Below, in pieces: positions 5,090-62,768 of a DNA stretch of 64,000 bases. This stretch comes from Candidatus Poribacteria bacterium. Its GTDB lineage: Bacteria > Poribacteria > WGA-4E > PCPOR2b. Within the stretch, counting starts at the first letter, position 1. Every line of letters begins with the position of its first letter. The notes beneath the pieces were generated by a model, which searched no databases, had not been told where the DNA came from, and saw only the letters and a list, made by a program, of their open reading frames with translations. The DNA lies in contig OZ220744.1 in the NCBI GenBank assembly GCA_965116925.1, forward strand, positions 6,379,757 through 6,443,756, written 5' to 3'. A program made the position numbers and the translations under genes.

Positions 5090-5265
5090 ATCTGTTACCC
5101 GTAGAATATGAAACGTGAAAGGTGAGATGTGAAAGGCGGAAACCATTGGTTCATTGGTACGGTCCGGCCTACCGTTACGGCGTTGGGTTTTAGAGCTCCG
5201 GTTCAACCCAATCTACGTGCGGCACGGTTGTCGCACCACTGAGGCTATGGATCGGGTGAGACGGC

Positions 5266-6228: not shown

Positions 6229-6231
6229 CAC

Positions 6232-6324
6232 TATAGTAGATTTGAGAATTAATTAGACATTGTGAACGAGCCCCGATAGACCGGGATTCACCGAATTAGG
6301 GCACACGGTGTGTGCCTACTACTA
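6232..6324. repeat. Partial copy of MITE-like family T (TATAGTAGATTTGAGAATTAATTAGACA head, ending in the hairpin gggcacacggtgtgtgcc)
   Basis: About 80 % identity to 23140-23233. The head matches the terminal inverted repeats (TIRs) of the elements at 23140-23346 and 29033-29320. Confidence 0.6.
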
Positions 6325-9940: not shown

Positions 9941-11713
9941 ATGATCTTTACTATCAACAAAATCCATCACAAGATCTTCCTCACTTATAGTTCTGTATTC
10001 CTTATCATAATCGTAGGAATCTTCGTGGTCGCACGTGTTGCTATCGTGCGGACTTTAGATAGTCAGATTCAAGAGGAGGTTCAAGAGTTCAGAACACGGC
10101 TTACCCACACGATAGATCTGCTTCGCCAAGATATTGAGGAAAAAGTTCAGCGCGAAATCAAGGACTGGCGTGTCGTTCAGGCGATCCGAAACCGTGAGCC
10201 GTATCCCCCTAGCATCACCGACAGTGTAATGGATATCTTGGAATATGGAACCGACGAGGGTATTGTTACTGCAAGTAAAGTGGGCAATGATGCTAACTTG
10301 CGCCATGGAGAAAAAGATCTGGAAGCGTTAGCTCTGGCCCGAAAACCGAAGCCAGAACCAGCATCGCGGCTCCGAACACCTGAAGCACGGACGACAATCG
10401 AGATTACATTGCCAATTCAAGCGGAGGGTAATTTTTTGGGATTTGTCACCGGCGGCTATTTTTTACATAAACATCTCAGCCAAGTCCTAAAGGATCTGAC
10501 ACTCCATCCGATCTTTCTCAAGGAAGGTACTCGCCTCGTACCGCTGAACGCCCCCGGCGAGACGATCCCAAAGTACCAACGAGAATCGCTCCTAGCGCAT
10601 GCAGATGACGCATATCAGACGTTTCCAAAGATTGAGCTAATAGGTGTGCCGCACAGCGTCAGTCGTATCCTAATTTTAGCCTCAAATATTGAGATGCAGA
10701 CTGAAGCGCAGCAGAAACCCCAAGTCGTTGGGCCAGAGTTGGTTCTTGCATACTCCCATCGGGATCAGATTGCACTACAACAGCAGCTTATGTCTATCCT
10801 ACTTATCATCGGTGGGGTTGGACTGATTTTAGTATACATTGTCAGTTATATCGTTGGACTTCAAATGACAAAACCGATCAATCAGTTAGCGGCGGGAGCG
10901 GCTGAAATTGCGTCAGGCAATCTTGAACAGCGGGTCGCCCTCCAAAGTCGAGATGAAATCGGTAGATTGGCGAGTGCTTTCAACCAGATGGCGGCAACGC
11001 TGAAGACGAGTCTAGAGAGACAGCTCGCTGCCGAGCGACATGCAGCGTGGGGAGACGCTGCCCGTTGGGTTGTCCACGAGGTTAAGAACCCGCTATTTCC
11101 CATTCGGCTTTCGATCGAAAACCTGCAGCGAGCCTATCAAAGTGGGGACACCCGACCAGCGATGTTTGATGAAATTTTTGTACAATGCACCGACATAGTT
11201 ATTGAGGAGGTGGAACGACTACAGCGACTGGTAGATGAGTTCGATCAGTTTGCACGAATGCCCCCTCCTAAACGGGAGCTATCTGATTTCAATCAAATCG
11301 TGCAGAACGTGGTGAGCCTGTACGCGGAATCCGTCGAGAACATTCAGATTCAGGCGAATCTTTCCTCTGATCTCCTTCCTCTCTCTCTTGATTCGGAGCA
11401 GATCACACAGGCGTTAGGAAATCTGATTAAGAATGCGATCGAAGCCATGCCTAACGGCGGAACACTGAACGTCTCGGCTCAATCGGTAAGTGAGACGAAA
11501 ATTCAGATCCAGATTCGAGACACCGGCATCGGTATGTCACCAGAGACGCTAGCACAGATTTTTGAACCCTATTATACAACAAAAGATACGGGGACAGGAC
11601 TGGGCATGGCGATTGTTCAGCGTATCATCACCGATCACGATGGAGAAATATTCGTCGAAAGCGAAGAAGGGGTTGGCACAACCGTTTCGATTGAATTGTT
11701 TCGTGAAACGTGA
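9941..11713 (+). CDS. sensor histidine kinase (N-terminal transmembrane segment, HAMP, HisKA with HEVKNPL, HATPase_c)
   Basis: H-box WVVHEVKNPL and G-boxes DTGIGM / GTGLGMAIV. Confidence 0.85.
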   Translation: MIFTINKIHHKIFLTYSSVFLIIIVGIFVVARVAIVRTLDSQIQEEVQEFRTRLTHTIDLLRQDIEEKVQREIKDWRVVQAIRNREPYPPSITDSVMDILEYGTDEGIVTASKVGNDANLRHGEKDLEALALARKPKPEPASRLRTPEARTTIEITLPIQAEGNFLGFVTGGYFLHKHLSQVLKDLTLHPIFLKEGTRLVPLNAPGETIPKYQRESLLAHADDAYQTFPKIELIGVPHSVSRILILASNIEMQTEAQQKPQVVGPELVLAYSHRDQIALQQQLMSILLIIGGVGLILVYIVSYIVGLQMTKPINQLAAGAAEIASGNLEQRVALQSRDEIGRLASAFNQMAATLKTSLERQLAAERHAAWGDAARWVVHEVKNPLFPIRLSIENLQRAYQSGDTRPAMFDEIFVQCTDIVIEEVERLQRLVDEFDQFARMPPPKRELSDFNQIVQNVVSLYAESVENIQIQANLSSDLLPLSLDSEQITQALGNLIKNAIEAMPNGGTLNVSAQSVSETKIQIQIRDTGIGMSPETLAQIFEPYYTTKDTGTGLGMAIVQRIITDHDGEIFVESEEGVGTTVSIELFRET

Positions 11714-11752
11714 TGCGTAAAACGTGATGCGTAAAAAATTGGTTCATTGGTG
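11702..11752. repeat. Heptamer-repeat family H copy (CGTGAAACGTGATGCGTAAAACGTGATGCGTAAAAAA), followed by a TTGGTTCATTGG module. It overlaps the kinase stop codon.
   Basis: The same ACGTGA(A/T)/GCGT(A/G)AA heptamer string recurs at 14521-, 30397-, 51246- and 58441-. Confidence 0.6.
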
Positions 11753-11799: not shown

Positions 11800-12471
11800 T
11801 TATTCCTGACGTTTTAAGGTTTGGATTCCTGAAGCAGTGCCGATAATGACTTGGTCAGTTCGGTTAATGAAAAGTCCGTTATCAACAACGCCGGGGATAT
11901 TATTGATGATGCGCTCAGTGGTAACTGGATCAAGAATACCATCAAAAGTGCAGTCCAAGATATAATTGCCGTTGTCACTAACAAAATTAGGACGCAGGGT
12001 CGAGTCTCGGCAGATCCGGTTGAGCGCGAGTTGGGTTGAACCCCAGCCAAATGGGACAACCTCCACCGGTACAGGGAAGTTGGATCCTAATTGTTCTACT
12101 TGCTTTCCTTCGTCAACGATGATGATCAGTCGTCTGGAGGCGTGGGCAATGATTTTCTCTCGGACTAGCGCGCCCCCCGCTCCTTTGATGAGATCGAGGG
12201 TGGGGTTGACTTCATCCGCACCGTCAATGGTTAAATCGATCACAGGGTATTCCCCAAGGGTTGAGAGCGATATACCTTGTTGAGTCGCGATTTCTTCTGT
12301 CTGTTTGGAGGTTGGAATACCAATAATATCAAGACCGCTCCGAACTTTTTCGCCAAGTTTTAGCAGCGCGTAGTAGATTGTTGAGCCTGTGCCGAGCCCG
12401 ACGATCATGCCGGACTCCACTTCTTCGACAGCCTGTTCTGCCGCGAGTTGTTTCAGTTTTTCTGTTTCCAT
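11800..12471 (-). CDS. rpiA: ribose-5-phosphate isomerase A
   Basis: GLGTGST, DGADEV and the conserved C-terminal region, 223 aa. Confidence 0.9.
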   Translation of the reverse strand: METEKLKQLAAEQAVEEVESGMIVGLGTGSTIYYALLKLGEKVRSGLDIIGIPTSKQTEEIATQQGISLSTLGEYPVIDLTIDGADEVNPTLDLIKGAGGALVREKIIAHASRRLIIIVDEGKQVEQLGSNFPVPVEVVPFGWGSTQLALNRICRDSTLRPNFVSDNGNYILDCTFDGILDPVTTERIINNIPGVVDNGLFINRTDQVIIGTASGIQTLKRQE

Positions 12472-12556
12472 ATTTTCTCCTGATAGGGATTCGTTTTGAT
12501 AAATCGGGATTGATATTCATTCGCCTTGAATTGTTTCCGGGCACCGTTTCTAATTT

Positions 12557-12649
12557 GGCTCATATCAAAAGAAGATGCAAAGCACGAAGAGAAACCGAAT
12601 TTTCAAGAAAAAACTCGGTTTCAGATGCACGATTTTTTAACATGAGCGT
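12557..12649. mobile_element. MITE-like family P, copy A: a 93-bp imperfect palindrome (GGCTCATATCAAAAGAAGATGCAAAG...GAAACCGA|TCGGTTTC...) flanked by a 7-bp direct repeat CTAATTT (12550-12556 and 12650-12656)
   Basis: Its arms are reverse complements of each other. It is homologous, in inverted orientation, to 17010-17100. The flanking direct repeat looks like a target-site duplication. Confidence 0.65.
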
Positions 12650-12744
12650 CTAATTTTAACACTTCACGGGAGGGTTTTCTACCCAAATTGTTGTGTCTCA
12701 CGTATGACACAATACACATTACAACCCTGCAAGGATAACCGCAA

Positions 12745-14478
12745 ATGAATCTATACCTCCGCCTATTAAGTTACGTTAAGCCGTACTGGAAAAGCACGGT
12801 GGTTACGCTAATAGCAATGTTGGTTGTATCCGTCGGCAATCTGGTTCCAACATGGATTGCAGGGCGGATTGTTATTGATGGGGTGATTGTACAGCGGGAT
12901 GTCAGCCGTTTGCACTGGATCGCGCTCCTGCTGCTTGGCGTTTATCTCGTAAAGAGCATCGCGGTAATGTTGGCAGAATGGTTGTCCCACGAAATCGCTG
13001 AAAAGATTATTTACGATATGCGGACGCAGATCTATAGCCATTTGCAGAAACTTTCGTTTCGCTTTCACAAGGACAGCACTACCGGCGATATGATGTCGCG
13101 TGTAGTGAATGACATCGACGCGATGCGGGATATGCTTGCTCACACCATACACATATTCATTGTGCAAGCGTTGACCTTTATCGGGATTGCTATCATATTG
13201 TGTGCCACGAACTTGAAAATGGCGATCCTGACCCTTGTCCCGATCCTGATTCTGGGACCGTTGATTGTCCACTTCGGTATAAAGCTGCGTCTCATTTCCC
13301 GCGATGTACGTGCAGAACTTGCGGAGGTCAACGCTCGTTTGCAAGATAACCTTTCGGGAATCTTCGAGATTCAAGCCTTCGCCCGTGAACCTTATGAGGA
13401 GAAGCGGTTTATCGCCCGATGTGCCGACTACCGGAACTCAATCATCCGAGGAGTACGCCTGTGGGCGCGGCTGAATCCCGCCGTGCAGTTTTTGCTTGGC
13501 GCGAGTTACGCAGCGATTCTGTGGTACGGCGGTTGGCAGATAATTACCGGATCGAGTGATATGACCGTTGGACAACTGTTTATTTTTCTTGGATTTTTGT
13601 GGCAGCTGTTTATGCCGATTCAGATGGCAAGCCACGAAAATGAACGGTTGCAGAAAGCCCTCGCCGCTGGCGAACGGATGATGGAGTTGTTAGACACAGC
13701 CCCTGAAATTAAAGACCTCCCGAATGCTTGGACGGGGAAGATTAAAGGGGAACTTTTGTTTGAAGATGTTTCGTTCAGGTACACGGATGAAGATGTCTTG
13801 ACAGATGTGAATCTCAAAATCCGACCGGGGGAGACAATCGCTTTCGTCGGTCCCAGTGGTGTCGGCAAAACGACGTTAGTTGGTCTTGTGCCGAGATTCT
13901 ACGATGTAACCGGCGGACAGGTGAAGGTTGATGGTGTCAGTGTGCGGGATTGGCAAATTCAGGCGTTGCGGCGTCAGATTGGGCTTGTGCCACAAGAGAC
14001 GTTCTTATTTAATGGAACAATTGGAGAGAATATCGCTTACGGCAAACTGAACGCAATACAGATAGAAATTGAAATGGCAGCGAAATCCGCTAATATCTAT
14101 GACTTTATCGCAGGTTTACCAGATCGTTTTGATACCGTTGTTGGGGAGCGCGGTATGCGTCTCTCTGGTGGGCAAAAGCAACGGGTTTCCATTGCGCGTG
14201 CCATTTTGAAAGATCCACCCATCCTCATCCTTGATGAAGCCACCTCCTCTGTTGATACGGAATCAGAACAGCTAATCCAGCAGAGCTTGGTAAACCTACT
14301 GCATGGGCGTACCACACTGATTATTGCTCACCGACTTGCGACTATCAGATTTGCGGATCGAATCGCCGTATTGGCGGACAATCGAATTGTCGAACTTGGG
14401 ACACACGTCGAGCTGCTTTCACAGGGGGGACTATACACACGGCTTTACAATGCACAGTTTGGGGACAAGGGCTCGTAG
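12745..14478 (+). CDS. ABC transporter, fused permease/ATPase (exporter)
   Basis: Transmembrane domain plus Walker A GPSGVGKTT, the LSGGQKQR signature and ILDEATS. Confidence 0.9.
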   Translation: MNLYLRLLSYVKPYWKSTVVTLIAMLVVSVGNLVPTWIAGRIVIDGVIVQRDVSRLHWIALLLLGVYLVKSIAVMLAEWLSHEIAEKIIYDMRTQIYSHLQKLSFRFHKDSTTGDMMSRVVNDIDAMRDMLAHTIHIFIVQALTFIGIAIILCATNLKMAILTLVPILILGPLIVHFGIKLRLISRDVRAELAEVNARLQDNLSGIFEIQAFAREPYEEKRFIARCADYRNSIIRGVRLWARLNPAVQFLLGASYAAILWYGGWQIITGSSDMTVGQLFIFLGFLWQLFMPIQMASHENERLQKALAAGERMMELLDTAPEIKDLPNAWTGKIKGELLFEDVSFRYTDEDVLTDVNLKIRPGETIAFVGPSGVGKTTLVGLVPRFYDVTGGQVKVDGVSVRDWQIQALRRQIGLVPQETFLFNGTIGENIAYGKLNAIQIEIEMAAKSANIYDFIAGLPDRFDTVVGERGMRLSGGQKQRVSIARAILKDPPILILDEATSSVDTESEQLIQQSLVNLLHGRTTLIIAHRLATIRFADRIAVLADNRIVELGTHVELLSQGGLYTRLYNAQFGDKGS

Positions 14479-14490
14479 CTTTGAAATCTT

Positions 14491-14575
14491 GACTCATGTA
14501 AAAAGAAGGTGCAAAGTGATAGGAACGTGAAACGTAAAAACAAACTATTGGATCGTTAGTTCATTAGCAATAAAG
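14491..14575. repeat. Half copy of family P (GACTCATGTAAAAAGAAGGTGCAAAG) fused to a family-H heptamer string (GAACGTGAAACGTAAAAAC) and a GTTCATTAG module
   Basis: Aligns to the left arm of 12557-12649. Confidence 0.5.
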
Positions 14576-14663
14576 AACAACAATCTTCCGGTCTACGACC
14601 GAAAGTCCGAGAGTTGGCTCCTACGGTTACTGTTGCACGATTTCTTAACATGAATCACCCAAC

Positions 14664-15392
14664 TTAGTCAGTATAGCGTTGTTTGCCGTTGAAGGAAATT
14701 CGGGGCCAGGTTGTATGGGGCCAATCCGTGAACTGATACGGGATATAGTGGTTTGCCATGACGTGGCGCAAAGCACCACGCTGCTTGATTGGACCTCCGC
14801 GATGAATCAAGCGACCGTGAAATAACACTGCATCGCCCTGATTGGCTATAATGGAAATCTCAGGACGGTTGTTCTCCTCAAAGATCCGTTCGGTCTTCGC
14901 GTGGCGATACTCGTAATCCATTTTCCCGTTCTCATCTAGTGTCTCCCAGTACGTTACAAGTTCCCCTTTGTGTGAGCCGGGCTGTATATAGATAGTGCCG
15001 TTTGTCTCGTTGACATCTACCAAAGGTAGCCAAGCGGACATGCAGCCGGGGAGGGGACACTGGTCCTGGTGGCGTCTCCCTTCAGAGCCTTTGTAGAAAT
15101 ACATGGTTTGTATGCCCTCAACATCAGCTTCAAAACAATCTTCCAGCGGCTGGCGTAGACGGGAATCGATCAGCAAGGAAAGTGCTTTCGGATCATACAG
15201 ATGCTGATTGTGTGTACGACCCCAATTGTCTGGTTCGCGGGGTGTGAAACCTTCAAGCGTTTTTTGCCCTGAATGAAGTGCCATCATGTGTTCAACGAAC
15301 TCCTCGCACTCCGCTTTGGAAAAGACTGATTTCAGGATGGTATAGCCATCCTGATCGTACTGTGCTTTTTGTTCTGGGGTTAGACCTTTCAT
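14664..15392 (-). CDS. phytanoyl-CoA dioxygenase (PhyH) family Fe(II)/2-oxoglutarate oxygenase
   Basis: QYDQDGYTIL N-terminus, an HQDQ (H-x-D) motif and a distal His. Confidence 0.65.
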   Translation of the reverse strand: MKGLTPEQKAQYDQDGYTILKSVFSKAECEEFVEHMMALHSGQKTLEGFTPREPDNWGRTHNQHLYDPKALSLLIDSRLRQPLEDCFEADVEGIQTMYFYKGSEGRRHQDQCPLPGCMSAWLPLVDVNETNGTIYIQPGSHKGELVTYWETLDENGKMDYEYRHAKTERIFEENNRPEISIIANQGDAVLFHGRLIHRGGPIKQRGALRHVMANHYIPYQFTDWPHTTWPRISFNGKQRYTD

Positions 15393-15688
15393 TAAAAAAC
15401 TCCTTTCATATTGAGTGACCTTTGGTGCTAGTTATGGACAAAGTCGTTTCCACATTGTTCAAGAGCTCATTGATTTATTTCTTCTTACGTTCTTGCCTTT
15501 GGATGCACATGTCGCCCCTCTGGGGCTTGGGAGAAGGTCCCTATCGCCCAGCTATAGACATGTCGCCCCGCTGGGGCTAAATGAACCCACGAACCTTTCC
15601 CGTCCCGTTCCGAGTATCCCAAGTATTGGGATTTTCACGCATCAGGTACTCTATCCTGATTCAGACGACAATTATGAGCCCCCTTCAT

Positions 15689-16903
15689 CTATTTCTCCTC
15701 GTATAGCCACGCGATCGGACGGATAACCATTTTGCGGTAGCGGGGCCAGGAGGGTGGATCTGTGGAGGCATCTAGCTGCGGGCCGAAGTCGTAGAGCAGC
15801 ACAACTTCGTCCTCGAAGAAATGCGCGTTCGGATACGATACATATATCATGTCAGCCGGCAGCTCACCGAGTTCTTTTTCGCCGCGAACCATACCGATTT
15901 CATTGTCGGGACGAATGCGGTCAGATCTATCCATCGGACCGCCAACTTCAAGCGTCTTGAAGTGTCCCCAACTGCCCCCATCATCTGTCGAGATAGCGAG
16001 TGACAAGCGTGAGCGGCGAAAACCACGACGGATTTCATCTCCGCTCACCTGATTCCACACGCAGAGCAGGTCTCCAGTGGTTGGGATGACGCGAAGTCGG
16101 CACGGCGAGTATGAACTGGCAAGTGCTGTTGGCTTAGGTAAGGACCATGTTAGTCCTTCGTTATCACTGAAACTTTGGTAGAGGCGGCCCAACGTTGTTC
16201 GGAACATCATTAGGAGTCGTCCATCGCGGAGTTGTACCGCACCAGGCTCGTCGCAGGGCCACATTCCGCCGTAACCGTCTTGGTGCCAGATCACGATGTC
16301 TTGAGGGCATCGTTTCCAAGTGCCGCCCTCGTTGTCTGAAAAGTAGACTTGACTCGTGTCAATCTCCGGACCGTGAGCGTGCCCCTCTGTTTTGAAACGC
16401 TTTCCTTGAAAGGTGCCGTAGGCACCGGCGTCCTTCAGTTCCGGAAACGTGCAGGGTGGACAGAACCGCGTGGGTAAAACTAAGCGACCTGACCGGAGTT
16501 GAAAGAGTACATCGTGATAGTTACTCGCGGTCTCACCGGGTAGGTTGATGAGTGTTTCTTCTGACCATGATTCACCTTCGTCGTCGGAGGTGCGAAAGCA
16601 GAGTGCATAGCCAGCCAATGTTCCACCGGCTGTGCCGCTAAGGCGACCGTAGAGGAGACCGATCTTGCCTGACTGCAAACGCCCTAGGCAGGTCGGGGCA
16701 CCTGTTCCAGTAATAGGTTCGTTGCCGGTCTGAAGCGGTTCACCCGCCGACCAAGTTCGTCCCCGGTCATTGGAATAGCTAACATTCAATCCCGACCAAA
16801 CCATCAGCCATCGTCCATCCTTCAGTTTGATCATACCTTCGTGCGCTCCCGGGGCGCGCCCTTCAAAAACTGTAGAATCTGCCATTGCTCGTGTCCTTTT
16901 CAA
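15689..16903 (-). CDS. BNR/Asp-box repeat glycoside hydrolase (sialidase-like)
   Basis: Five Asp-box repeats of the form S-x-D-x-G-x-T-W (SNDRGRTW, SDDEGESW, SDNEGGTW, SDNEGLTW, STDDGGSW). Confidence 0.8.
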   Translation of the reverse strand: MKRTRAMADSTVFEGRAPGAHEGMIKLKDGRWLMVWSGLNVSYSNDRGRTWSAGEPLQTGNEPITGTGAPTCLGRLQSGKIGLLYGRLSGTAGGTLAGYALCFRTSDDEGESWSEETLINLPGETASNYHDVLFQLRSGRLVLPTRFCPPCTFPELKDAGAYGTFQGKRFKTEGHAHGPEIDTSQVYFSDNEGGTWKRCPQDIVIWHQDGYGGMWPCDEPGAVQLRDGRLLMMFRTTLGRLYQSFSDNEGLTWSLPKPTALASSYSPCRLRVIPTTGDLLCVWNQVSGDEIRRGFRRSRLSLAISTDDGGSWGHFKTLEVGGPMDRSDRIRPDNEIGMVRGEKELGELPADMIYVSYPNAHFFEDEVVLLYDFGPQLDASTDPPSWPRYRKMVIRPIAWLYEEK

Positions 16904-17009
16904 AGGTTAAAAATATGATATATTTTTTTTGCAATTTTGTGACATAATGTAGGACAATATCATTGTATAATGTTTTAATTTCGCATTCAACAAGATTATA
17001 TAAAAAAAT

Positions 17010-17100
17010 GGCTCATGTTAAGAAATCGTGCAAAGAAACCGAGTTTTTCCGAAAAAACTCGGTTTCTCTTCGTATTTTGCACTTTCTTTTGATATGAACC
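17010..17100. mobile_element. MITE-like family P, copy B (91 bp, inverted relative to copy A), flanked by an 8-bp direct repeat AAAAAAAT (17002-17009 and 17102-17109)
   Basis: Palindromic core GAAACCGAGTTTTTCCGAAAAAACTCGGTTTC. Homologous to 12557-12649. Confidence 0.65.
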
Positions 17101-17129
17101 GAAAAAAATAAGGGATAAACGGAGCCAAC

Positions 17130-17918
17130 ATGATTACCGAGCAAGAGGTTCAACAGTTTTCCGAGATGGGCGCAGTGACAATCGATACGCCGTTGACGCA
17201 ACAGGAGCTCTCAGCGGCATCAGCCGTGTTTGATCGCCTGCTTCCGTTTAGTGAACCGGGGGCAGGAGAAGAACCGCGCTATCGGGTCAGCACAACGTGC
17301 ACCTTCTATGATCCAGAATTGTTGGACATCATCCAACATCCATTTTTTGAGGAAGTCGCCAAGCGTGCGCTACGAGCTGATGAGATAAGTTTCTTTCAAA
17401 CTGCCATCGTGACAACTTATCCATCGCCAAATACTCCCTTCAGCTTCTACCAACACGTGGATGTCCAATACAGCCTCTCGAATCTTGACGCTACTCCTAG
17501 GTATATGGTTTGCACCTTTTTTGTCTGGATAGATGATGTAACGGCACAACGTGCGCCCTTGATGTATCGTCCCGGCAGCCATCGACTGATAGCTAAATAC
17601 AGAGAAAACCGACCGGAGCTGAAAGGCAGCGTTCCGCTTGTCGGAGGTGTTATGTTGGATGGGCTGCCTGCACTTGGTTACGCTGAGGCAATTCCTGTGG
17701 TGGCGCGAGCGGGTCAGGCGACCGTCCTGACCACTGCGATGGTGCACGGCGCATCAACCAATGTGGACATCGTTCCTCGTAAGGCGATGGTTATTACCTT
17801 CACGGCGGCGGAGGTAGAGATTGGTCTGCCCCAGAATCAGGCGGAGACTAAGCGGGCTTATGACCGTGAGTTAAAAAGGCTTCTTCGTCCTGAACGAGCA
17901 CATATTGTTCCTGCTTGA
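17130..17918 (+). CDS. PhyH-family dioxygenase
   Basis: PhyH-like N-terminal helix (ITEQEVQQFSEMGAVTID) and His-containing jelly-roll motifs. Its similarity to the other paralogues is weaker. Confidence 0.5.
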   Translation: MITEQEVQQFSEMGAVTIDTPLTQQELSAASAVFDRLLPFSEPGAGEEPRYRVSTTCTFYDPELLDIIQHPFFEEVAKRALRADEISFFQTAIVTTYPSPNTPFSFYQHVDVQYSLSNLDATPRYMVCTFFVWIDDVTAQRAPLMYRPGSHRLIAKYRENRPELKGSVPLVGGVMLDGLPALGYAEAIPVVARAGQATVLTTAMVHGASTNVDIVPRKAMVITFTAAEVEIGLPQNQAETKRAYDRELKRLLRPERAHIVPA

Positions 17919-17973
17919 GAGGGAGGAATCTCCGAATCCCAACGCCAGATAGCCTTAATTTCACCATAACGAC

Positions 17974-18188
17974 TAGGGCAATCGCATATAGAAATTTTGC
18001 TTGACGGTAGCGCGAATTCGGGTCATTGCATCTGTTTATTTGACGCCCGAGGGCACCGAATCCGTTCATTTGGACGTGATTTCACACACTCATTGGAACA
18101 ACATCTACTGAATTGTTGGACAAATCATACAAAACAAAGGACTGCCTACGCTATAACCGTTTCAATCGCTTTCACATGCGATTGCCCT
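17974..18188. mobile_element. Internally deleted derivative (MITE, 215 bp) of the ISAs1-family IS at 21329-22585. It carries both terminal inverted repeats (left TAGGGCAATCGCATATAGAAA, right TTTCACATGCGATTGCCCT) but no transposase gene, and is inverted relative to the full IS.
   Basis: The left end matches the reverse complement of the IS right end over about 38 nt. The right end matches the IS left end (AGGGCAATCGCATGTGA). Confidence 0.7.
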
Positions 18189-18195
18189 CGACCTT

Positions 18196-18235
18196 CATCA
18201 AATACAGATGGAAATTTATACGTACTCATGTTATA
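18196..18235. repeat. 40-bp direct repeat R (CATCAAATACAGATGGAAATTTATACGTACTCATGTTATA); the second copy is at 21288-21327
   Basis: The two copies are identical 40-mers. Each abuts an IS-type end: the MITE right end and the IS left end. Confidence 0.8.
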
Positions 18236-18662
18236 TATGGACAAAATCAATGATGTGGTGATTTGAATATATACACTGAAAAACACGACACACTGCCATT
18301 ATCGCCGTCGGTGTCTTTGGAGGTAGATTGAAACCTCTTGTTAATTGCGATTCTTGCTGTCTTGTTTACCTCTCTTTTCTGTGCAATTTTTTCACACGCT
18401 CGTAAATTTTGCACAATAAATTGCGCGTACTCAGACAGGTTTTACAGTTTCCCCCCTTGTGTTTTTGACTCTTCCGAGATTCGCGCTAGTTGGTACAATT
18501 CTTGCTTAAAGCCTTGTAGTTCGGCGATTTATCGCCGTAGGACACCATTTCCAACGCCCGATGAATCGGGCAACTACAGCAGGAGTACCATCAAGGATCT
18601 CGTAGAGAACAACGATCGTTGTTCCCTACTGAAGTGCGTAACTCCTAAGGAGGATAATTAAA

Positions 18663-19733
18663 ATGCCTGAAATTCGAGTTGCCGTTGTTGGTATCGGAAA
18701 CTGTGCATCTTCTTTGCTCCAAGGTATTGAATACTATCGAGATGCCAAAGAGGATGAGTTCGTTCCCGGTCTGATGCACGTTAAGTTTGGACCCTACCAT
18801 GTGAGTGATGTTAAAGTTGTTGCAGCTTTTGATGTAAATAAGAACAAGGTCGGGCTGGATGTTGCTGATGCGATTTTTGCCGAAATCAACAATACCATAA
18901 AATTCTCAGATGTGCCAAAGACCGGCGTGATTGTTCAGCGTGGTGCCACGATGGATGGGTTTGCCAAATACTACCATGAGACGGTCGATGAATCGCCGGC
19001 TGAAGTCGTTGATGTCGCTGAGATTTTGCGCGAAAGTCAAGCCGATATTCTCATCAATTATCTACCTGTTGGCAGCGAGGCAGCAACAAAATGGTATATG
19101 GCGCAGGCGTTGGACGCCGGTTGCGCTGTTGTCAATTGTATGCCTGTATTCATCGCAAAAAATGACGAATGGCGTGCAAAATTTGAAGCCGCAGACTTGC
19201 CTATCGTTGGAGACGATATTAAGGCGCAATTCGGAGCCACTATCGTTCACCGTACGCTAGCAAAATTGATGAGTGACCGCGGCGTGAAACTTGAACGCAC
19301 CTCTCAATTGAACGTTGGCGGAAATATGGATTTCAAAAACATGCTGGAAAAAGAGCGGTTGGAATCCAAACGCATCTCCAAGACGGATGCCGTTGTCTCC
19401 CAACTCAACCATGAGGTCGCACCGAAAAATGTCTATATCAGTCCCAGCGATTACGTGCCCTTCCTCGAAGATCGGAAATGGTGCTATCTCTATCTCGAAG
19501 GAACCGCATTCGGTGATATTCCCGTCCGGGCTGAATTCAAATCGGAGATATGGGATTCGCCCAATTCGGCGGGTGTAGCGATTGACGCGATTCGTTGCTG
19601 CAAAATTGCACGGGACCGCGGGATCAGCGGTGCCCTTTATGGCCCAAGTGCTTACTTCATGAAATCACCACCACGTCAATATGCTGACGCCGAAGCCTTG
19701 GCGATGGTGGAAGATTTCATCGGCGGTAGATAA
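18663..19733 (+). CDS. ino1: myo-inositol-1-phosphate synthase (archaeal/bacterial type)
   Basis: N-terminal Rossmann [13 protein letters not shown], the conserved LNVGGNMDF region, and a strong RBS TAAGGAGGA; 356 aa. Confidence 0.8.
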
Positions 19734-19844
19734 GGGATAGCATAGGGAACGCAGATCTGCGTTCCCTACTTGCAGTCGAATCCATGGGAAAGCATAGCCA
19801 TATTTTGCTTTCCCATTTTTATTATTTTGGTAAAGGAGTACGAG

Positions 19845-20194
19845 ATGCCACATTTTCGCGCCATTCACACGATTAAACTAAAGCCGCATGTTGAACGCGA
19901 ACAGTTTGAGGATTTTATGCTACATCAATTTCTACCTACAGTTCGAGCGCTGCCTAACTGTCTGAATGTCGAGCTACTCAAAGGGTACAGTGGAGATCTT
20001 GCCGGCTTCGCACAATCCGGCACAATTATATCTGGATGACGCTCTGGGAAAGTGTGGAGGCGAATAACGCTGTTTGGTCAAGAGAAGGCGTCCACCGCAC
20101 ACCGGACGAAATATTGGAAATTAACGCCAAACTCCATCATTATGCGGCGAACTATTCGCTAGTCGGCGGGTTTACCGTAGAAGCAACGGTCTAG
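19845..20194 (+). pseudogene. Small alpha+beta-barrel-like protein (possibly ABM/Dabb-like, about 116 aa) broken by a -1 frameshift near 20034-20038. It has the RBS AAAGGAG.
   Basis: Reading frame 1 gives MPHFRAIHTIKLKP...SGTIISG and then a stop. The -1 frame continues WMTLWESVEANNAVWSREGVHRTPDEILEINAKLHHYAANYSLVGGFTVEATV without interruption. Confidence 0.4.
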
Positions 20195-20276
20195 GTCATG
20201 AATCCACAATGAGATTTGGGTTATTCTTAGATCCAGTCCTGCAATATATTGAACCTACTTTTATCACCATCAGTGA

Positions 20277-21272
20277 TCCTCAAACCCGCTCAATCCAACG
20301 GGAGCATTCGTGGGGCACTGGTCATACCACCTGTTGGAGATTTCACTTAGTGGGGAAATTAAGCCATCGCAGGCACTGGTCAAGCCGCCGATGATTTTCA
20401 ATATCTGGCATCAATACACCAGCATCGAACCAATGTGCTCAATCCTTGGGGAAGCAGCGGAACTGGAAACCAGATCTAATGTCCTTACGGCAAACATTGC
20501 GGCAGGATACCCATACGCCGATGTCCATGAAATTGGTCCTGCTGCTGTCGTTGTGACCGACAACAATCCACAACTCGCCCAAACAGAAGCCGAGCGGTTA
20601 TCGAATATGTTGTGGAATGTGCGTGATCAACTGGACGTCAACCTGCCAGATGCAGCAGCAGTCGCACAAGCAATACAGAGCGAGTCATACCCTGTTATAT
20701 TGGTCGAGATGGGAGATAACATCGGGGGCGGCTCGCCGGGAGACAGTACATTCATTTTAAGTGAACTGGTGAGACAGAAAGTGGATGGGTTCGTCTGTAT
20801 CCTCTATGCACCACAAGAGGTGGAGGCGTGTATTCAGGCGGGGGTTCGCGGGAAGGTTGACCTGACTGTGGGTGGGAAATCGGATGACCTACACGGCTCA
20901 CCGGTCCCAATCCGTGGGCGTGTTCGTCTCATTCACGACGGCTACTACGAGGAGACAGAACCTCGCCACGGCGGTGGAAGATACCAAGATCAAGGTATCA
21001 CGGCAGTTGTCGAAATGGAAGGGAAGAGCCTGATTGTGCTAACGAGCAAACATCAAGTACCATTCAGTCTACATCAACTCTTCAGTTTGGGGATTGATCC
21101 ACGGCAAATGAAGTACATCGTTGTCAAAGCTGCTATCGCCTATCGTGCAGCCTATGAGCCTATCGCAGGAAAGATTATTGAAGTAGATCCCCCCGGACTG
21201 ACCGCGGTAAATCCGCTGCATTTTACGTATCAGAGTGTGCGGAGACCAATCTTTCCATTGGATTCAATGTAG
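20277..21272 (+). pseudogene. M81-family metallopeptidase (MlrC-like), 5'-truncated: only the C-terminal two-thirds is present, about 330 of an expected ~500 aa
   Basis: An MlrC C-terminal region is present. There is an in-frame stop at 20274, the DUF1485 N-terminal domain is missing, and the only possible start is a GTG. Confidence 0.5.
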
Positions 21273-21287
21273 CATCTAACTCGAATC

Positions 21288-21327
21288 CATCAAATACAGA
21301 TGGAAATTTATACGTACTCATGTTATA
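21288..21327. repeat. Second copy of the 40-bp direct repeat R, immediately left of the IS left end
   Basis: Identical to 18196-18235. Confidence 0.8.
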
Positions 21328-21328
21328 A

Positions 21329-22585
21329 TAGGGCAATCGCATGTGAGATTTTAGAATAGCGTAGATAAGACAGTAATTAAGTAGTCGGTGTCCCATGCGG
21401 CTTTCAATCGTTTGGTGGCAACCCCGACCTTGGCTGAGGGTTCCCCCTTGAGTAGGTTCAGTGCAATCCGTCGAAGTATGGCGAAGTTTTGACTGCCATT
21501 TTCTTTACGGATACGACACCTATCTTCATCAAAGGCAACATCTAATACCCAATGACATGAGTTTTCAATCGACCAATGGGTTTGAATAGCGTTAAGCAGT
21601 TGGTCAGCCTCGCCGGGCAACGACGAGAGATAGTATCGAGATTTCACCGTAGTCTGCCCATTATGTTCGCGCTGGGCAGTGACCTTCACCACTGAATTGA
21701 GATTGACAAAGGTTTCACTGCCTCTCAACGGTGCAATCAAAGCAGGGTCCGCAACACGGATAGCAGTTCGCGTCTCAATGCGCCCGTGGTTGCCATTGAT
21801 TGTCTGAGCGGTGTCGGTTTGCACATCGGGTAACTGATTATCGGCAATGCCATCAAACAGCAGTTTGACATCTTCATACAGTTGTCCTTGATTCGCTTTC
21901 AATGCTAACACATAATCCGCATCGGCATCGACAATCTGTTGAGCAATAGGCGGGTGACATCCCATCGCATCAATGGTCACAATACAGTCTGAGAGTGTCA
22001 ACAACTCCAGTAATGGTGGAATGGCTGGTATCTCATTGGAATGGGCAGCGACTTTCAGTTGACCCAGTGTCACCGATTGTGCTGATGCCCATGCACTGAC
22101 AAGGTGAATCGCACCATGGTCGGTCAAGCTATCATAAGAACGACGCAGGCGTTTACCATCAACAGCAACCACTTGACCATCTGTCACTTTGATAACCTGT
22201 TTTATCCAATTGATGAAACAATGCTCAAATGCAACGGAGTCAATTAAACCAAAGACTCTACTAAAGGTGTCGTGCGATGGAATACCGTTAGGTAATTTCA
22301 ATAAACCAGACAACCACTTAGATTTCGCATGACCAAATGATTCGACAGCCACCCAGCTATCAGCACCACAGATGACCCCACAGATAGCGATGACAACCAT
22401 ATCCAGCAATTTATGACGTATCCGATTCTTGTCTGTTCGGGGGTCAGGTAAGTCAGAAAAATGGGATTCGATTGAGCTTATCGGTTGATTCGGCATCTTA
22501 GCGACTCCTTGGCTTTGAGGATGCCTTATACATTACCTCAATTTACAACACTGTCAAATACTATTTTTTATATGCGATTGCCCTA
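21329..22585. mobile_element. ISAs1-family insertion sequence (1257 bp) with 17-bp imperfect terminal inverted repeats TAGGGCAATCGCAT(G/A)T(G/A)
   Basis: Left end TAGGGCAATCGCATGTGAG at 21329 and right end TATATGCGATTGCCCTA ending at 22585. It holds a single transposase ORF. Confidence 0.85.
21351..22496 (-). CDS. ISAs1-family (IS4-superfamily, H-repeat-associated-type) DDE transposase
   Basis: 381 aa with the N-terminal DLPDPRTDKNRIRHKLLDMVVIAICGVICGADSW typical of ISAs1 transposases, followed by a DDE core. Confidence 0.85.
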   Translation of the reverse strand: MPNQPISSIESHFSDLPDPRTDKNRIRHKLLDMVVIAICGVICGADSWVAVESFGHAKSKWLSGLLKLPNGIPSHDTFSRVFGLIDSVAFEHCFINWIKQVIKVTDGQVVAVDGKRLRRSYDSLTDHGAIHLVSAWASAQSVTLGQLKVAAHSNEIPAIPPLLELLTLSDCIVTIDAMGCHPPIAQQIVDADADYVLALKANQGQLYEDVKLLFDGIADNQLPDVQTDTAQTINGNHGRIETRTAIRVADPALIAPLRGSETFVNLNSVVKVTAQREHNGQTTVKSRYYLSSLPGEADQLLNAIQTHWSIENSCHWVLDVAFDEDRCRIRKENGSQNFAILRRIALNLLKGEPSAKVGVATKRLKAAWDTDYLITVLSTLF

Positions 22586-22781
22586 CCATAACGACATTGC
22601 ATCTCAACACACGTCAGAGTATAATACAAACTGCTGACAGTCATGCTATCCACTTGTCATTACCATACATTGCACCCCAGCATTTACACCCACGGTTGGT
22701 CGTAGACTCCTCCGATCTGATTGGAGTCCACCAAAATCGAGATCGGAACGGAGAGAGATTTCCCAATCCTGACCCTTTTTT

Positions 22782-22999
22782 CGTTGGCATAGCGTTGGCA
22801 TTGATTGGTGTTCCTTTGGTATAGCGTTGGCATAGCGTTGGCATTGATAGATGAGCAGATGAAGCGGCTAAAATCGGTTCGGAGCCATGCTACCGTTGGC
22901 TTCCCAGCATTTTCACCCTGTAGGTGAGGTTTACCCAACTCGCCCCCGATCCCCCAAACTTTTTTTTCTGTTGGCATAGCGTTGGCATTAATAGAAGGA
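22782..22999. repeat. Cluster of three irregularly spaced 23-mers, GTTGGCATAGCGTTGGCATTGAT (at 22782-, 22830- and 22971-). Two of them are preceded by a T6-8 run.
   Basis: Each repeat contains TGGCAT-N5-TGGCA, which resembles a sigma-54 -24/-12 element. The spacings are irregular (33 and 108 bp), so this is not a CRISPR array. Confidence 0.55.
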
Positions 23000-23139
23000 T
23001 CCTTATGCGTTCCTCTCATTTAGTTTTTCTGTCGATTGCACACTCTTCCGATTGAATCAGAGCCCTCGAAAATCGGGATTGAAATAGAGAGGATTTCCGA
23101 ATCCCGACACATCGCCCAGATAAGCAAAAAACCGAAAAC

Positions 23140-23346
23140 TATGGTAGATCTTAGAATGAATTAGACACGATGAACGGACCTTGATAGATCGAGGTTCACG
23201 GAGTGACGGCACACGGAGTGTGCCTACTACTATTAATGTCTATTTATGATGCATTTTAAAAATAAATGGATACTTTCGCTCTCCGGTAGGTGCGGTTTCC
23301 TAACCGCCCGGTTTGAAGTGTCTCATTAATTCTCAGATCCACTATA
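23140..23346. mobile_element. MITE-like family T element (207 bp) with terminal inverted repeats of about 28 bp, TATGGTAGATCTTAGAATGAATTAGACAC ... GTGTCTCATTAATTCTCAGATCCACTATA
   Basis: The ends are imperfect reverse complements of each other. The flanks are compatible with a TA dinucleotide duplication. It is related to 29033-29320 and to the half copy at 6232-6324. Confidence 0.6.
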
Positions 23347-23448
23347 AATGCCAATGAGTATAAGCAAGCTGGTGAACAACAGCGAATTAGGTATTGGGAT
23401 CTACGGAAGAGTCTGTGGCACTTCATTAATCACGACATTGTAATTGCT

Positions 23449-28936: not shown

Positions 28937-29032
28937 CCGATGCCTCCTCTCTCAATAACCTTTGGTCCGAGTTAGTGAGGGTTTGGTTCAAAAGTCCATT
29001 CATGAACCAATGAACTAATGCACTAAGGTATT

Positions 29033-29320
29033 TATAGTGGATCTTAGAATTAATGGGACACTTCAAACGGGTGCGGTTAGGAAAACGGAACTACCGTTCT
29101 CCCGTTTGGTAGGCACTGTTTCCAACTGTGCCTATTCGGTGCGGTTGAATGAAAATTAAAAAAACAGTTCGGTAATTTGCTAGCGACGCCGGCGCGGTTT
29201 CAAACCGCGCCTACCGTATGTTTCGAGGAAAATAGGGATTACCGATTTAAATACTTAAACTTCATCAAACCGCACCTACCGGTGGGTGAGAGTGTCTATT
29301 TATTTTTAGAATTCACTATA
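29033..29320. mobile_element. MITE-like family T element (288 bp), with terminal inverted repeats TATAGTGGATCTTAGAATTAATGGGACAC ... GTGTCTATTTATTTTTAGAATTCACTATA
   Basis: Inverted termini are homologous to 23140-23346. Internal palindrome GCGCGGTTTCAAACCGCGCC. Confidence 0.6.
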
Positions 29321-30394: not shown

Positions 30395-30396
30395 AG

Positions 30397-30527
30397 TGAA
30401 ACGTGATGCGTGAAACGTGAAAACCGTTTGTTGATGAACTCGTGAATTCGTTGGCGCAGTCGAGCTAGGAAACTCGACCTGCGGGGCTCAAAAAAGACAG
30501 CGCAACATGCAAAGAAAAACCGAGTGT
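30397..30527. repeat. Family H heptamer string (GTGAAACGTGATGCGTGAAACGTGAAAACCG) plus an ATGAACTCGTGAATT module, then a half copy of family P (GGCTCAAAAAAGACAGCGCAACATGCAAAGAAAAACCGAGTGTTTT)
   Basis: It starts right after the stop codon of the 2-hydroxyacid dehydrogenase gene. Composite of two repeat families seen elsewhere in the window. Confidence 0.55.
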
Positions 30528-30528
30528 T

Positions 30529-51181: not shown

Positions 51182-51245
51182 CTGTCACCTCATGATTAAT
51201 TGAATAGTTAGAAGTATAATTAAGGTGAGAAGATATCCGCCTTTT

Positions 51246-51300
51246 CTCACGTATCACGCATCACGTTTCACGCATTCAATGAACTAGTGAATTAATGAAC
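51246..51300. repeat. Family H heptamer string in reverse orientation (CACGTATCACGCATCACGTTTCACGC) plus an AATGAACTAGTGAATTAATGAACC module
   Basis: Matches the repeats at 11702-, 30397- and 58441-. Confidence 0.55.
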
Positions 51301-58431: not shown

Positions 58432-58440
58432 AGAATTAAG

Positions 58441-58540
58441 CGTAATGCGTAAAAGCTGAAAGTGGGAAAACGTGATGCCTGAGACGTGAAAAAGGGCAGA
58501 AACCTCCTCACATTTTACGTTTCACGTTTCATTGTTACGG
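58441..58540. repeat. Family H heptamer block with inverted arms (CGTAATGCGTAAAAGCTGAAAGTGGGAAAACGTGATGCCTGAGACGTGAA ... TTTTACGTTTCACGTTTCATTG)
   Basis: The heptamer units and their reverse complements appear at both ends, so the block could fold into a long hairpin. Confidence 0.55.
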
Positions 58541-58542
58541 AT

Positions 58543-59085
58543 TTACCCTTGGGATCGTCGTCCTGGATCTCGATAAATAACACGGCCGCGTGTTAAATCG
58601 TAAGGCGACAGTTCGACAAGGACTTTATCTCCCGGCAGAATTCTGATGAAATTCTTCCGCATTCTGCCAGAGATGTGTGCCAGGATCTCATGTTTATTAT
58701 CCAATTCAACCCGAAACATGGCATTGGGTAGGGTTTCGATCACTGTCCCTTGTACCTCGATTTTGTCTTCCTTGGCTCGGACTCGGGATTGGACACCATC
58801 TCTGGTTTCCTGAGTCTCTTGCTCTGCGCGAACCTCAATCTTATCCTTACGAAATTCACGCTTATTTTTCTTTTTATTTCTGGTTTTTCCTGCGCCTGGT
58901 GCGGGACCTCTACCTTGCGCTGGACCTCTGCCCTGTGAAGGTCCTCTACCTTGTGAAGGTCCTCTGCCTTGTGCAGATCCCCTTCCTTGTGAAGGTCCTC
59001 TACCTTGTGAAGGTCCTCTACCTTGTGCAGGTCTATTTCTATTTGGCGATGGGCCTCTTCCTTGTGTAGGTCTTTTGCCTCTCAC
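58543..59085 (-). CDS. infA: translation initiation factor IF-1 homologue (C-terminal 72 aa) fused in frame to a ~108-aa Gly/Arg/Pro/Lys-rich N-terminal extension containing (QGRGPS) repeats
   Basis: The C-terminus [70 protein letters not shown] matches IF-1. There is no in-frame ATG, GTG or TTG between the extension and the IF-1 domain. Confidence 0.7.
58896..59075. repeat. About nine tandem copies of an 18-bp unit (CCTTGTGAAGGTCCTCTA) encoding the hexapeptide repeats of the IF-1 N-terminal extension
   Basis: Direct tandem repeats are visible in the sequence. Confidence 0.8.
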
Positions 59086-62018: not shown

Positions 62019-62129
62019 TTAGGATGTTACTTCCTTTTTCTAATGGAGTTTTATAGGAGATTGCTGTCGAGCAGTTTTGAAAAATGACTCGTAATACACT
62101 GCACTGTACGGAACGCGGATCTGCGTTCC

Positions 62130-62768
62130 TTACTCCGCTTGAGTCAGCCGCTGCTCAATTAACGAGCGAATATAGTCTTTAGCGGTGTCTCCGGTCAATT
62201 CACCGCTGAGAATGTCGGTCACTTCAAATTCCGCTAAACGCAAGGTTGGTTTCAGTCCATGCAACGGCGGTAGCCAATCTCGGAATGTATCGAAAAAGGC
62301 GCGTTGTGCAGCTCGGCCGTTAATAAACGGAAAATCTGCTGTCTTTCGTCGAAAACGATCTGTCCCCTTCTGAATCGCCATCTCTTGATGTTTTACACAC
62401 AATTGGAGGTATGCGTGGCGATCAAATCCTAGAGCCAAGTCTTCCGAATAAAAGTCCAAAGTTATCTGACGAAATACTGTAAAATGTTGTAACTCGTCAA
62501 ATTCAAAGATAAAATTGTAGGGCGCGGGGAAATAGGCATCGGGGGTTAAGTATCCATCTGCTTTTGTGGATAAGCCCTCCCAATCACCGCCCATCTTCTC
62601 AAAGAGGTTGACAATTCTCGGATAATATTCACCGAAATGGGCTGGGGACGGTTTGTTTATCAGCCAATCGAACTGAGCACGCCGTTCAGCAGGAACCCCC
62701 AACACCTCCTCAACGAGCGCGATGATGCCGATTTCAAGACGCATGTTATGCGACGGCTCCTCCACCAC
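62130..62768 (-). CDS. hypothetical protein (212 aa)
   Basis: It is an ORF only. Its stop overlaps a GGAACGCGGATCTGCGTTCC palindrome. Confidence 0.4.
   Translation of the reverse strand: MVEEPSHNMRLEIGIIALVEEVLGVPAERRAQFDWLINKPSPAHFGEYYPRIVNLFEKMGGDWEGLSTKADGYLTPDAYFPAPYNFIFEFDELQHFTVFRQITLDFYSEDLALGFDRHAYLQLCVKHQEMAIQKGTDRFRRKTADFPFINGRAAQRAFFDTFRDWLPPLHGLKPTLRLAEFEVTDILSGELTGDTAKDYIRSLIEQRLTQAE

Follow-up and report, generated by a model that had tools for sequence, protein, structure and literature searches.

A 64,000-nucleotide stretch of the genome of a Candidatus Poribacteria bacterium (assembly GCA_965116925.1, contig OZ220744.1, positions 6,379,757 to 6,443,756; hereafter the window) carries three copies, E1, E2 and E3, of a repeat family that we call P and that is very probably a family of miniature inverted-repeat transposable elements (MITEs), that is, of non-coding, non-autonomous DNA transposons. 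Its members are short and non-coding, have terminal inverted repeats (TIRs), are flanked by a target-site duplication (TSD) of fixed length, occur in many dispersed copies and are present or absent at orthologous sites. The MITE interpretation had been put forward in a first-pass annotation of the window, and it is now supported by the fixed 8-bp TSD found across the family and by the single-target empty sites of E1 and E2. Poribacteria live in sponges as uncultured symbionts and are known mostly through metagenome-assembled genomes (MAGs), and our literature search found no published description of P, or of small repeats or MITEs in Poribacteria.

Structure and insertion sites of family P

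The canonical P unit is 91-93 bp long, with variants of 42-290 bp, and has the consensus GGYTCATRTAAAAAGAAAGTGCAAAGCACGAAGA-GAAACCGAGTTTT-loop-AAAACTCGGTTTC-TGTTGCACGATTTCTTAACATGAGCN. End-motif scans and alignment identified its A-end (GGYTCATRTAAAAAGAAAGTGCA) and B-end (TGCACGATTTCTTAACATGAGCC) as TIRs; in their longer form (GGYTCATRTMAAAAGAARRTGCAAA and TGCACGATTTYTTAACATGAGCN, respectively) they are different, related sequences that make imperfect inverted repeats, and between them lies a central hairpin, GAAACCGAGTTTT-loop-AAAACTCGGTTTC. Since the halves of the unit are imperfect inverted repeats, either strand can be folded into one long hairpin. The elements have no coding capacity, and no open reading frame (ORF) fits them. 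With 0.02 occurrences expected, each terminal motif is found three times in the window, and a covariance model trained on 33 canonical copies detected E1, E2 and E3 in the window and nothing else, with scores for E1 and E2 (91 and 109 bits, E ~1e-20 to 1e-25) far above chance. Rfam gave no match at gathering score in the window and none at E<=1 in positions 12400-17300.

The TSD was analysed in 66 two-ended P copies, with permuted flank pairs as the control, by comparing the eight bases that end 3 nt before TCAT with the eight that start 3 nt after ATGA. The duplication was perfect in 28 of the 66 copies and matched at seven or more of the eight positions in 37, the figure for permuted pairs being ~1.4%. 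Other registers scored lower and the ninth position was not duplicated, which fixes the length at exactly 8 bp. The target is rich in A and T, and both of its outermost positions are A or T (W-N6-W). The same 8-bp duplication was found around copies that had been chosen without a search pattern, and likewise around the copies of a subfamily found in metagenomes (see below), while a copy of only 42 bp, made of the two ends alone (L005), shows a 7/8 duplication. In the MAG JAJEAL01, copies that differ from each other at 0-2 positions lie at different sites, four of them with perfect duplications and a fifth cut by the contig end, which indicates a recent burst of activity.

E1 is a canonical 92-bp element at positions 12557-12648, oriented A-end to B-end on the plus strand and recognized both by its terminal motifs and by the covariance model (91.3 bits, E ~3e-20). 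It is flanked by the duplication TCTAATTT at 12549-12556 and 12649-12656, the two copies being identical at all eight positions, and its core hairpin, with arms GAAACCGAATTTT and AAAACTCGGTTTC, lies at 12591-12622 and is supported by folding. The first-pass annotation had placed the element correctly and had seen the flanking repeat, although it took this to be 7 bp long and extended the element to 12649; the final T belongs to the 8-bp duplication. It was also right about the neighbours, since E1 stands between the divergent genes rpiA (minus strand) and an ABC exporter (plus strand), as Pfam agrees.

E2, a canonical 91-bp element scoring 109.1 bits, lies in the opposite orientation (A-end to B-end on the minus strand) at 17010-17100, exactly where it had been annotated, between divergent genes for a BNR sialidase-like protein (minus strand) and a PhyH protein (plus strand), an assignment with which Pfam again agrees. 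Its core hairpin GAAACCGAGTTTTTCCGAAAAAACTCGGTTTC (17035-17066) has a perfect 14-bp stem and is flagged as terminator-like on the plus strand. The flank on the B-end side is AAAAAAAT (17002-17009) and that on the A-end side GAAAAAAAT (17101-17109), where the register is ambiguous inside an A-run; the direct repeats reported there match at 8/8 only if a 1-nt shift inside the homopolymer is allowed, and at 6/8 in the register of the family. E2 is closer to the P consensus than E1 (109 versus 91 bits). The pair had been described as inverted copies of ~85 % identity, and our alignment bears this out with 15 differences in 92 columns (~84%); as inverted-repeat matches, the two share 84% over 69 nt and 95% over 22 nt.

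Relatives of the window genome provided the corresponding empty sites. On the basis of the ABC exporter gene, the window groups with a 99%-identical strain (L114) and with contig OZ242315.1 (L007, 92.7%), and four further genomes (L118, L119, L121 and L122; 84-89% on the same gene) are outgroups to these three. E1 is carried by the window, L007 and L114 (the last judged by end motifs), and in the four outgroups the orthologous rpiA-ABC spacer is conserved, lacks the element and contains a single AAATTAGA, which is the reverse complement of TCTAATTT. E2 is missing from the orthologous site in L007 and in a TARA contig (L112), where GATTATAT-GAAAAA(C/T)A-AGGG is found once in both, so that the duplicated sequence occurs there as a single GAAAAACA or GAAAAATA; in the window, A-rich copies stand on both sides of E2 with a changed homopolymer length. 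Empty-site comparison was the check by which the first-pass annotation proposed to recognize an ancestral sequence, and the single target copy at E1 (four genomes) and E2 (two relatives) favours insertion.

E3 is a 166-bp variant at 14491-14656 on the plus strand, identified by end motifs and the covariance model, that has both P ends around a different interior made of ACGTGA heptads, GTTCATT repeats and a small hairpin. What had been annotated as a half copy at 14491-14520 is in fact the left end of this complete two-ended element, whose other end is at 14634-14653, and the ABC exporter gene and a PhyH gene other than the one beside E2 converge on it, both supported by Pfam. E3 is present in L007 and lacking in the four outgroups, in which the PhyH-ABC spacer measures ~50 bp as compared with 185 bp when E3 is there. 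The TARA contig was not used as an empty site for E3, because rearrangement has altered that locus and the variant found there is a different one in decay. An E3-type variant in another genome (L094) carries an 8/8 duplication. Most simply, E1 and E3 would have been acquired before the window genome and L007 diverged, and E2 afterwards, by the window lineage alone.

The second half copy of the first-pass annotation, at about 30485-30527, is real and corresponds to the left half of P as far as the left core arm, although it is degenerate and forms part of a longer, truncated composite repeat at 30396-30528 (plus strand). Local alignments of the latter scored 53-82 against five of the six loci tested (L012, L057, L064, L089 and L107), with a null maximum of 27, and the P covariance model did not detect it at E<=10.

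Several smaller modules were observed in and around P copies. Arrays of a 7-nt unit (GTGAAAC GTGATGC GTGAAAC GTGAAAA) lie in the window at 5108-5132, 11702-11741, 30396-30423, 51222-51272 and 58435-58532, mostly in short spacers adjoining gene ends, and the same module makes up the interior of E3-type variants in several genomes; they may be protein-binding arrays. Small CCCGAT...ATCGGG hairpin modules are nested within P copies (L007 5200-5260; L052, L058 and L099), and in L007 the E1 ortholog has one of them where its A-end and left duplication should be. Other mini-elements have repeatedly inserted into the loop of the P core hairpin as well (L064, L124 and L143).

Distribution and gene context

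The window itself is identical to part of a 6.6-Mb ENA contig (ERZ25072196 ctg194535). A collection of species-representative genomes was scanned for the exact 20-mer of the B-end, the counts that follow being those among the matches listed. More than 111 sites were found, all but one of them in ~20 assemblies that are nearly all titled Candidatus Poribacteria, three being titled 'uncultured bacterium'; one chromosome has 22 B-end sites and another 16. The exception, a single match in a Bdellovibrionota MAG, is probably due to chance. A second scan yielded 42 metagenome contigs with the 20-mer, most of which represent a distinct subfamily that apparently comes from non-sponge samples, judging by the contig names. 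The covariance model finds many further copies without the exact 20-mer, often in clusters that reach five copies in 8 kb, and the three copies within 4.5 kb of the window are therefore typical. Taken together, the two kinds of scan show P copies to be dispersed and to number in the hundreds. In the metagenome contigs L126, L132/L154, L163, L144 and L147, unrelated hairpins (for example AACCTTGAAAAGGTTCAGAACCTTTTCAAGGTT) directly precede an intact B-end, and no A-end is recognisable upstream; they may be relics that kept one end, or a unit of hairpin plus B-end that is used in its own right.

Almost all B-ends (110/114) are intergenic. They face a gene start in 54 cases and a gene end in 50, with 21 versus 13 in tandem contexts, and thus display no orientation bias; two-ended copies (n=53) lie between tandem genes in 34 cases, between convergent genes in 12 and between divergent genes in 7, and many P copies are ~10-30 bp from a stop codon. 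The divergent promoter setting noticed at first pass accordingly holds for E1 and E2 and is not a trait of the family.

The first-pass annotation had considered that the copies could supply or disrupt promoters; the position of E1 and E2 relative to promoter-like sequences suggests instead that both inserted just downstream of -10 boxes, and so within putative 5' leaders. At E1, a promoter-like TAGAAA-17-TAAAAT with an upstream TG directly precedes the insertion and points at rpiA, being invariant in six genomes; its -10 TAAAAT (minus strand, 12658-12653) is overlapped by the right copy of the duplication. On one side of E2 is a TATAAT (16966-16971) that one relative keeps and the other has with a single base changed, and on the other side is the PhyH ribosome-binding site. 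If these boxes are used, both elements would be transcribed B-to-A as hairpins of ~-35 kcal/mol in the leaders of rpiA and the PhyH gene. The folding proposed as a check at first pass did give strong hairpins for both strands of E2 and for the minus strand of E1 (-35 to -36 kcal/mol, z -6 to -8). Outward promoters within the P ends were considered and discarded: TTGCAC in the B-end and TGATATGAA in the A-end of E1 and E2 are poor sigma-70 matches, and there is no bias towards gene starts. Readings of the B-end as a sigma-54 promoter or an integron attC site were rejected by inspection.

With regard to rpiA itself, several relatives (among the homologues P0115, P0117 and P0119-P0121) annotate a protein of 273 aa instead of 223 aa, and the longer calls reach ~150 nt further upstream into the spacer; the 273-aa start is probably mis-called.

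Proposed transposition mechanism, candidate enzyme and rival explanations

On the model of known DDE transposons, a transposase acting in trans would recognise the ~25-bp P ends, cut an AT-rich W-N6-W target with an 8-bp stagger and join the element there, after which gap repair would produce the flanking 8-bp duplication. The ends would be the sole requirement in cis, because the 42-bp copy and copies with a replaced or interrupted interior still carry duplications.

Our best guess for the enzyme, which we advance tentatively and which may well prove wrong, is an ISL3-like DDE transposase, on the grounds that 8-bp repeats are produced by ISL3 elements, some of which start with GGCTCTT. Members of that family are bounded by ends such as GGCTCTTCGCGG... 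and flanked by 8-bp direct repeats, ISArsp7 being an example (PMC6305408), and an ISMac21/ISL3-related MITE has been listed (PMC3852290). P resembles ISL3 in the 8-bp duplication, in imperfect TIRs of a few tens of bp and in the outermost bases GGCTC, although the ends share nothing after their first 5-7 bases (GGCTCAT in P versus GGCTCTT in ISArsp7). The GGCTC likeness is weak evidence, since other ISL3 members, such as ISPst2, start with GGGTAT. Elements of the IS6, IS1595 and IS256 families also produce 8-bp duplications and are possible alternative sources.

An autonomous partner was looked for in several ways. Across all loci, the only long A-end to B-end pairs were those of L035, L109 and L142, each of them around ordinary genes; no ISL3 transposase (PF01610) bounded by P ends was found in these loci; and a pattern that skipped canonical copies and was aimed at contexts with a left end only gave no metagenome matches. 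BLAST of the P consensus against 72,556 plasmids returned chance-level matches only (E 0.2-9), two of which were checked and are not insertion sequence (IS) ends, and an ISL3 copy looked for on one plasmid was not found. Two candidates were rejected. The ISAs1-type IS of the window has different ends (GGGCAATCGCAT) and a small derivative of its own at 17973-18190, and an internal GGTTTCTGTTGCAC, which resembles IS6-family ends, points in the wrong direction and lies away from the boundary that the duplications set.

Some observations fit poorly with a simple MITE family and have to be set against those above. No autonomous element with P ends was found in ~1.2 Mb of flanking DNA around 150+ copies, an all-against-all BLAST of the 111 loci from the genome scan gave no repeat longer than ~250 bp, and a six-frame scan of 1.23 Mb for an ISL3 C-terminal motif found nothing, which is weak evidence. 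In addition, the E2 duplication is 6/8 in the family register, and E3 has no target duplication and stands where ~30 bp of the empty-site sequence have been exchanged, so that it did not arrive by clean insertion. That the B-end 20-mer looks perfectly conserved is a sampling effect, unselected copies having 1-5 B-end changes, and many sites have only a hairpin-preceded B-end without a recognisable A-end, through decay or something else.

The homopolymer flanks of E2, in which a chance repeat arises easily, and the missing duplication at E3 are also what might be expected if P consisted of ancestral, immobile intergenic palindromes whose flanking repeats are due to chance in AT-rich DNA. This is contradicted by the single-target empty sites in relatives and by 8-bp duplications at dozens of unrelated sites, and it does not agree with hundreds of dispersed copies, so that we give it almost no credence. 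It is likewise very improbable that P units are like the repetitive extragenic palindromes (REPs) and their mosaic elements (BIMEs), owing their spread to a RAYT (Y1) transposase or to recombination and not to a DDE enzyme. The mosaic, modular variants of P with nested small GC-rich palindromes do recall BIMEs, in which small palindromic units are also combined within one intergenic element; P differs in its defined ends, ~25-bp TIRs and fixed 8-bp duplication, which are foreign to REP elements, as these have no fixed target duplication and depend on RAYT.

A third possibility, which we hold to be unlikely, is that P is mobile but some copies have been adopted by the host, the candidates being hairpin-plus-B-end units that would serve to terminate transcription, to stabilise RNA from within 5' or 3' untranslated regions (UTRs), or to bind a conserved protein. 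Double (compensatory) changes preserve pairing in the core stem at 6 pairs (16 cells, as compared with 2.3 cells in shuffles), a covariation that fits maintenance of the palindrome and cannot separate RNA structure from a DNA hairpin, symmetric protein binding or subfamily descent; binding of both arms by a protein, or subfamily descent, would also be expected to produce it in an inverted repeat, and related sequences can exceed a shuffle control without any structure. The asymmetry between G-U and A-C pairs was dropped as a test of selection at the RNA level, since the subfamilies make the counts non-independent. A quarter of the B-ends that face a gene 3' end are within 8 bp of the stop codon (median 27 bp), convergent spacers are mildly over-represented (12/53 versus ~12% of spacers), and the core of E2 is the one flagged as terminator-like; yet B-ends turn to 5' and 3' gene ends about equally (54 vs 50), and there was no Rfam match even at E<=1. 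Orthologous copies kept across species that are 85-91% identical (L052, L078, L090 and L095), the several metagenome sites at which an intact B-end follows immediately on a different hairpin and the A-end is missing, and a B-end consensus common to sponge and non-sponge lineages also speak for adoption, against which the perfection of the B-end is an effect of ascertainment.

A broader proposal, to which we attach a small probability, is that P is a phylum-wide vehicle that spreads cis-acting modules into 5' and 3' UTRs, with selective retention of the hairpin-plus-B-end units and maybe a novel type of transposase. It arises because the same ends carry interchangeable cargo, namely the AT-rich hairpin, GC-rich hairpins or ACGTGA heptad arrays, and the last also occur alone at gene ends. 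If it were true, the modules would be terminator or RNA-stability hairpins, or protein-binding arrays, and their retention would span sponge-associated and free-living lineages.

As a MITE family, P is an element of an ordinary kind that works like the classical bacterial MITEs and leaves knowledge of the mechanism unchanged. The Correia elements of Neisseria (CREE/NEMIS) are ~100-150 bp long, duplicate TA, are co-transcribed with their neighbours as a hairpin and have a known IHF site and promoter activity, and they have no known autonomous partner. P is similar in being a palindromic MITE that is abundant in intergenic DNA and for which no autonomous partner was found, and differs in its 8-bp (W-N6-W) instead of TA duplication, its unrelated sequence and its presence in another phylum. 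ERIC/IRU and RUP are imperfect palindromes of ~100-130 bp in transcribed intergenic regions, RUP duplicating TA with IS630-Spn1 as its partner. Like them, P is an imperfect palindrome that is present or absent at orthologous sites; unlike them, in which duplications are different or lacking, it is confined to Poribacteria and related uncultured lineages, and there is no sequence similarity. In practice, P insertion polymorphisms are usable as strain and species markers, P helps to explain assembly breaks and mis-called gene starts (as in rpiA, 273 vs 223 aa), and metatranscriptomics could use as natural experiments the 92-nt hairpins that inserted upstream of rpiA and of the PhyH gene, in their putative 5' leaders.

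Other repeats and islands in the window

The ISAs1-type IS occupies 21336-22585 and contains a transposase ORF at 21351-22496 (minus strand; Pfam DDE_Tnp_1_assoc and DDE_Tnp_1) between ends (T)AGGGCAATCGCAT. Its non-coding derivative of ~215 bp (17973-18190) has the same ends and lies 3 kb away. The flanks of the two are swapped (an 11-nt sequence X and a 49-nt sequence Y, 18196-18244 / 21288-21336), suggesting an inverted duplication or rearrangement. The surrounding 5.5 kb (17922-23440), which contain genes for inositol-1-phosphate synthase and an MlrC-like protein in addition to the IS, are a strain-specific island: it is missing from the 99%-identical strain L114 and from the TARA contig, in which the PhyH gene is followed directly by that for G6PD.

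Another repeat family of ~95 nt or more (TATAGTAGATYTTAGAATTAATKAGACA...) occurs in direct and inverted orientation at 6230-6324, 23138-23232, 29027-29071 and 23308-23352, and a copy in L121 (2110-2340) lies in the rpiA-ABC spacer at a position different from that of E1. GC-rich perfect palindromes (TAGGGAACGCAGATCTGCGTTCCCTAC), which may be terminators or a REP-like family, were found at 18603-18630, 19743-19770 and 62106-62134, the second just after a stop codon (19733). Finally, an 18-nt tandem repeat of ~10 units at 58888-59080, inside the ORF at 58543-59085 (minus strand), is predicted to encode a 6-residue repeat.

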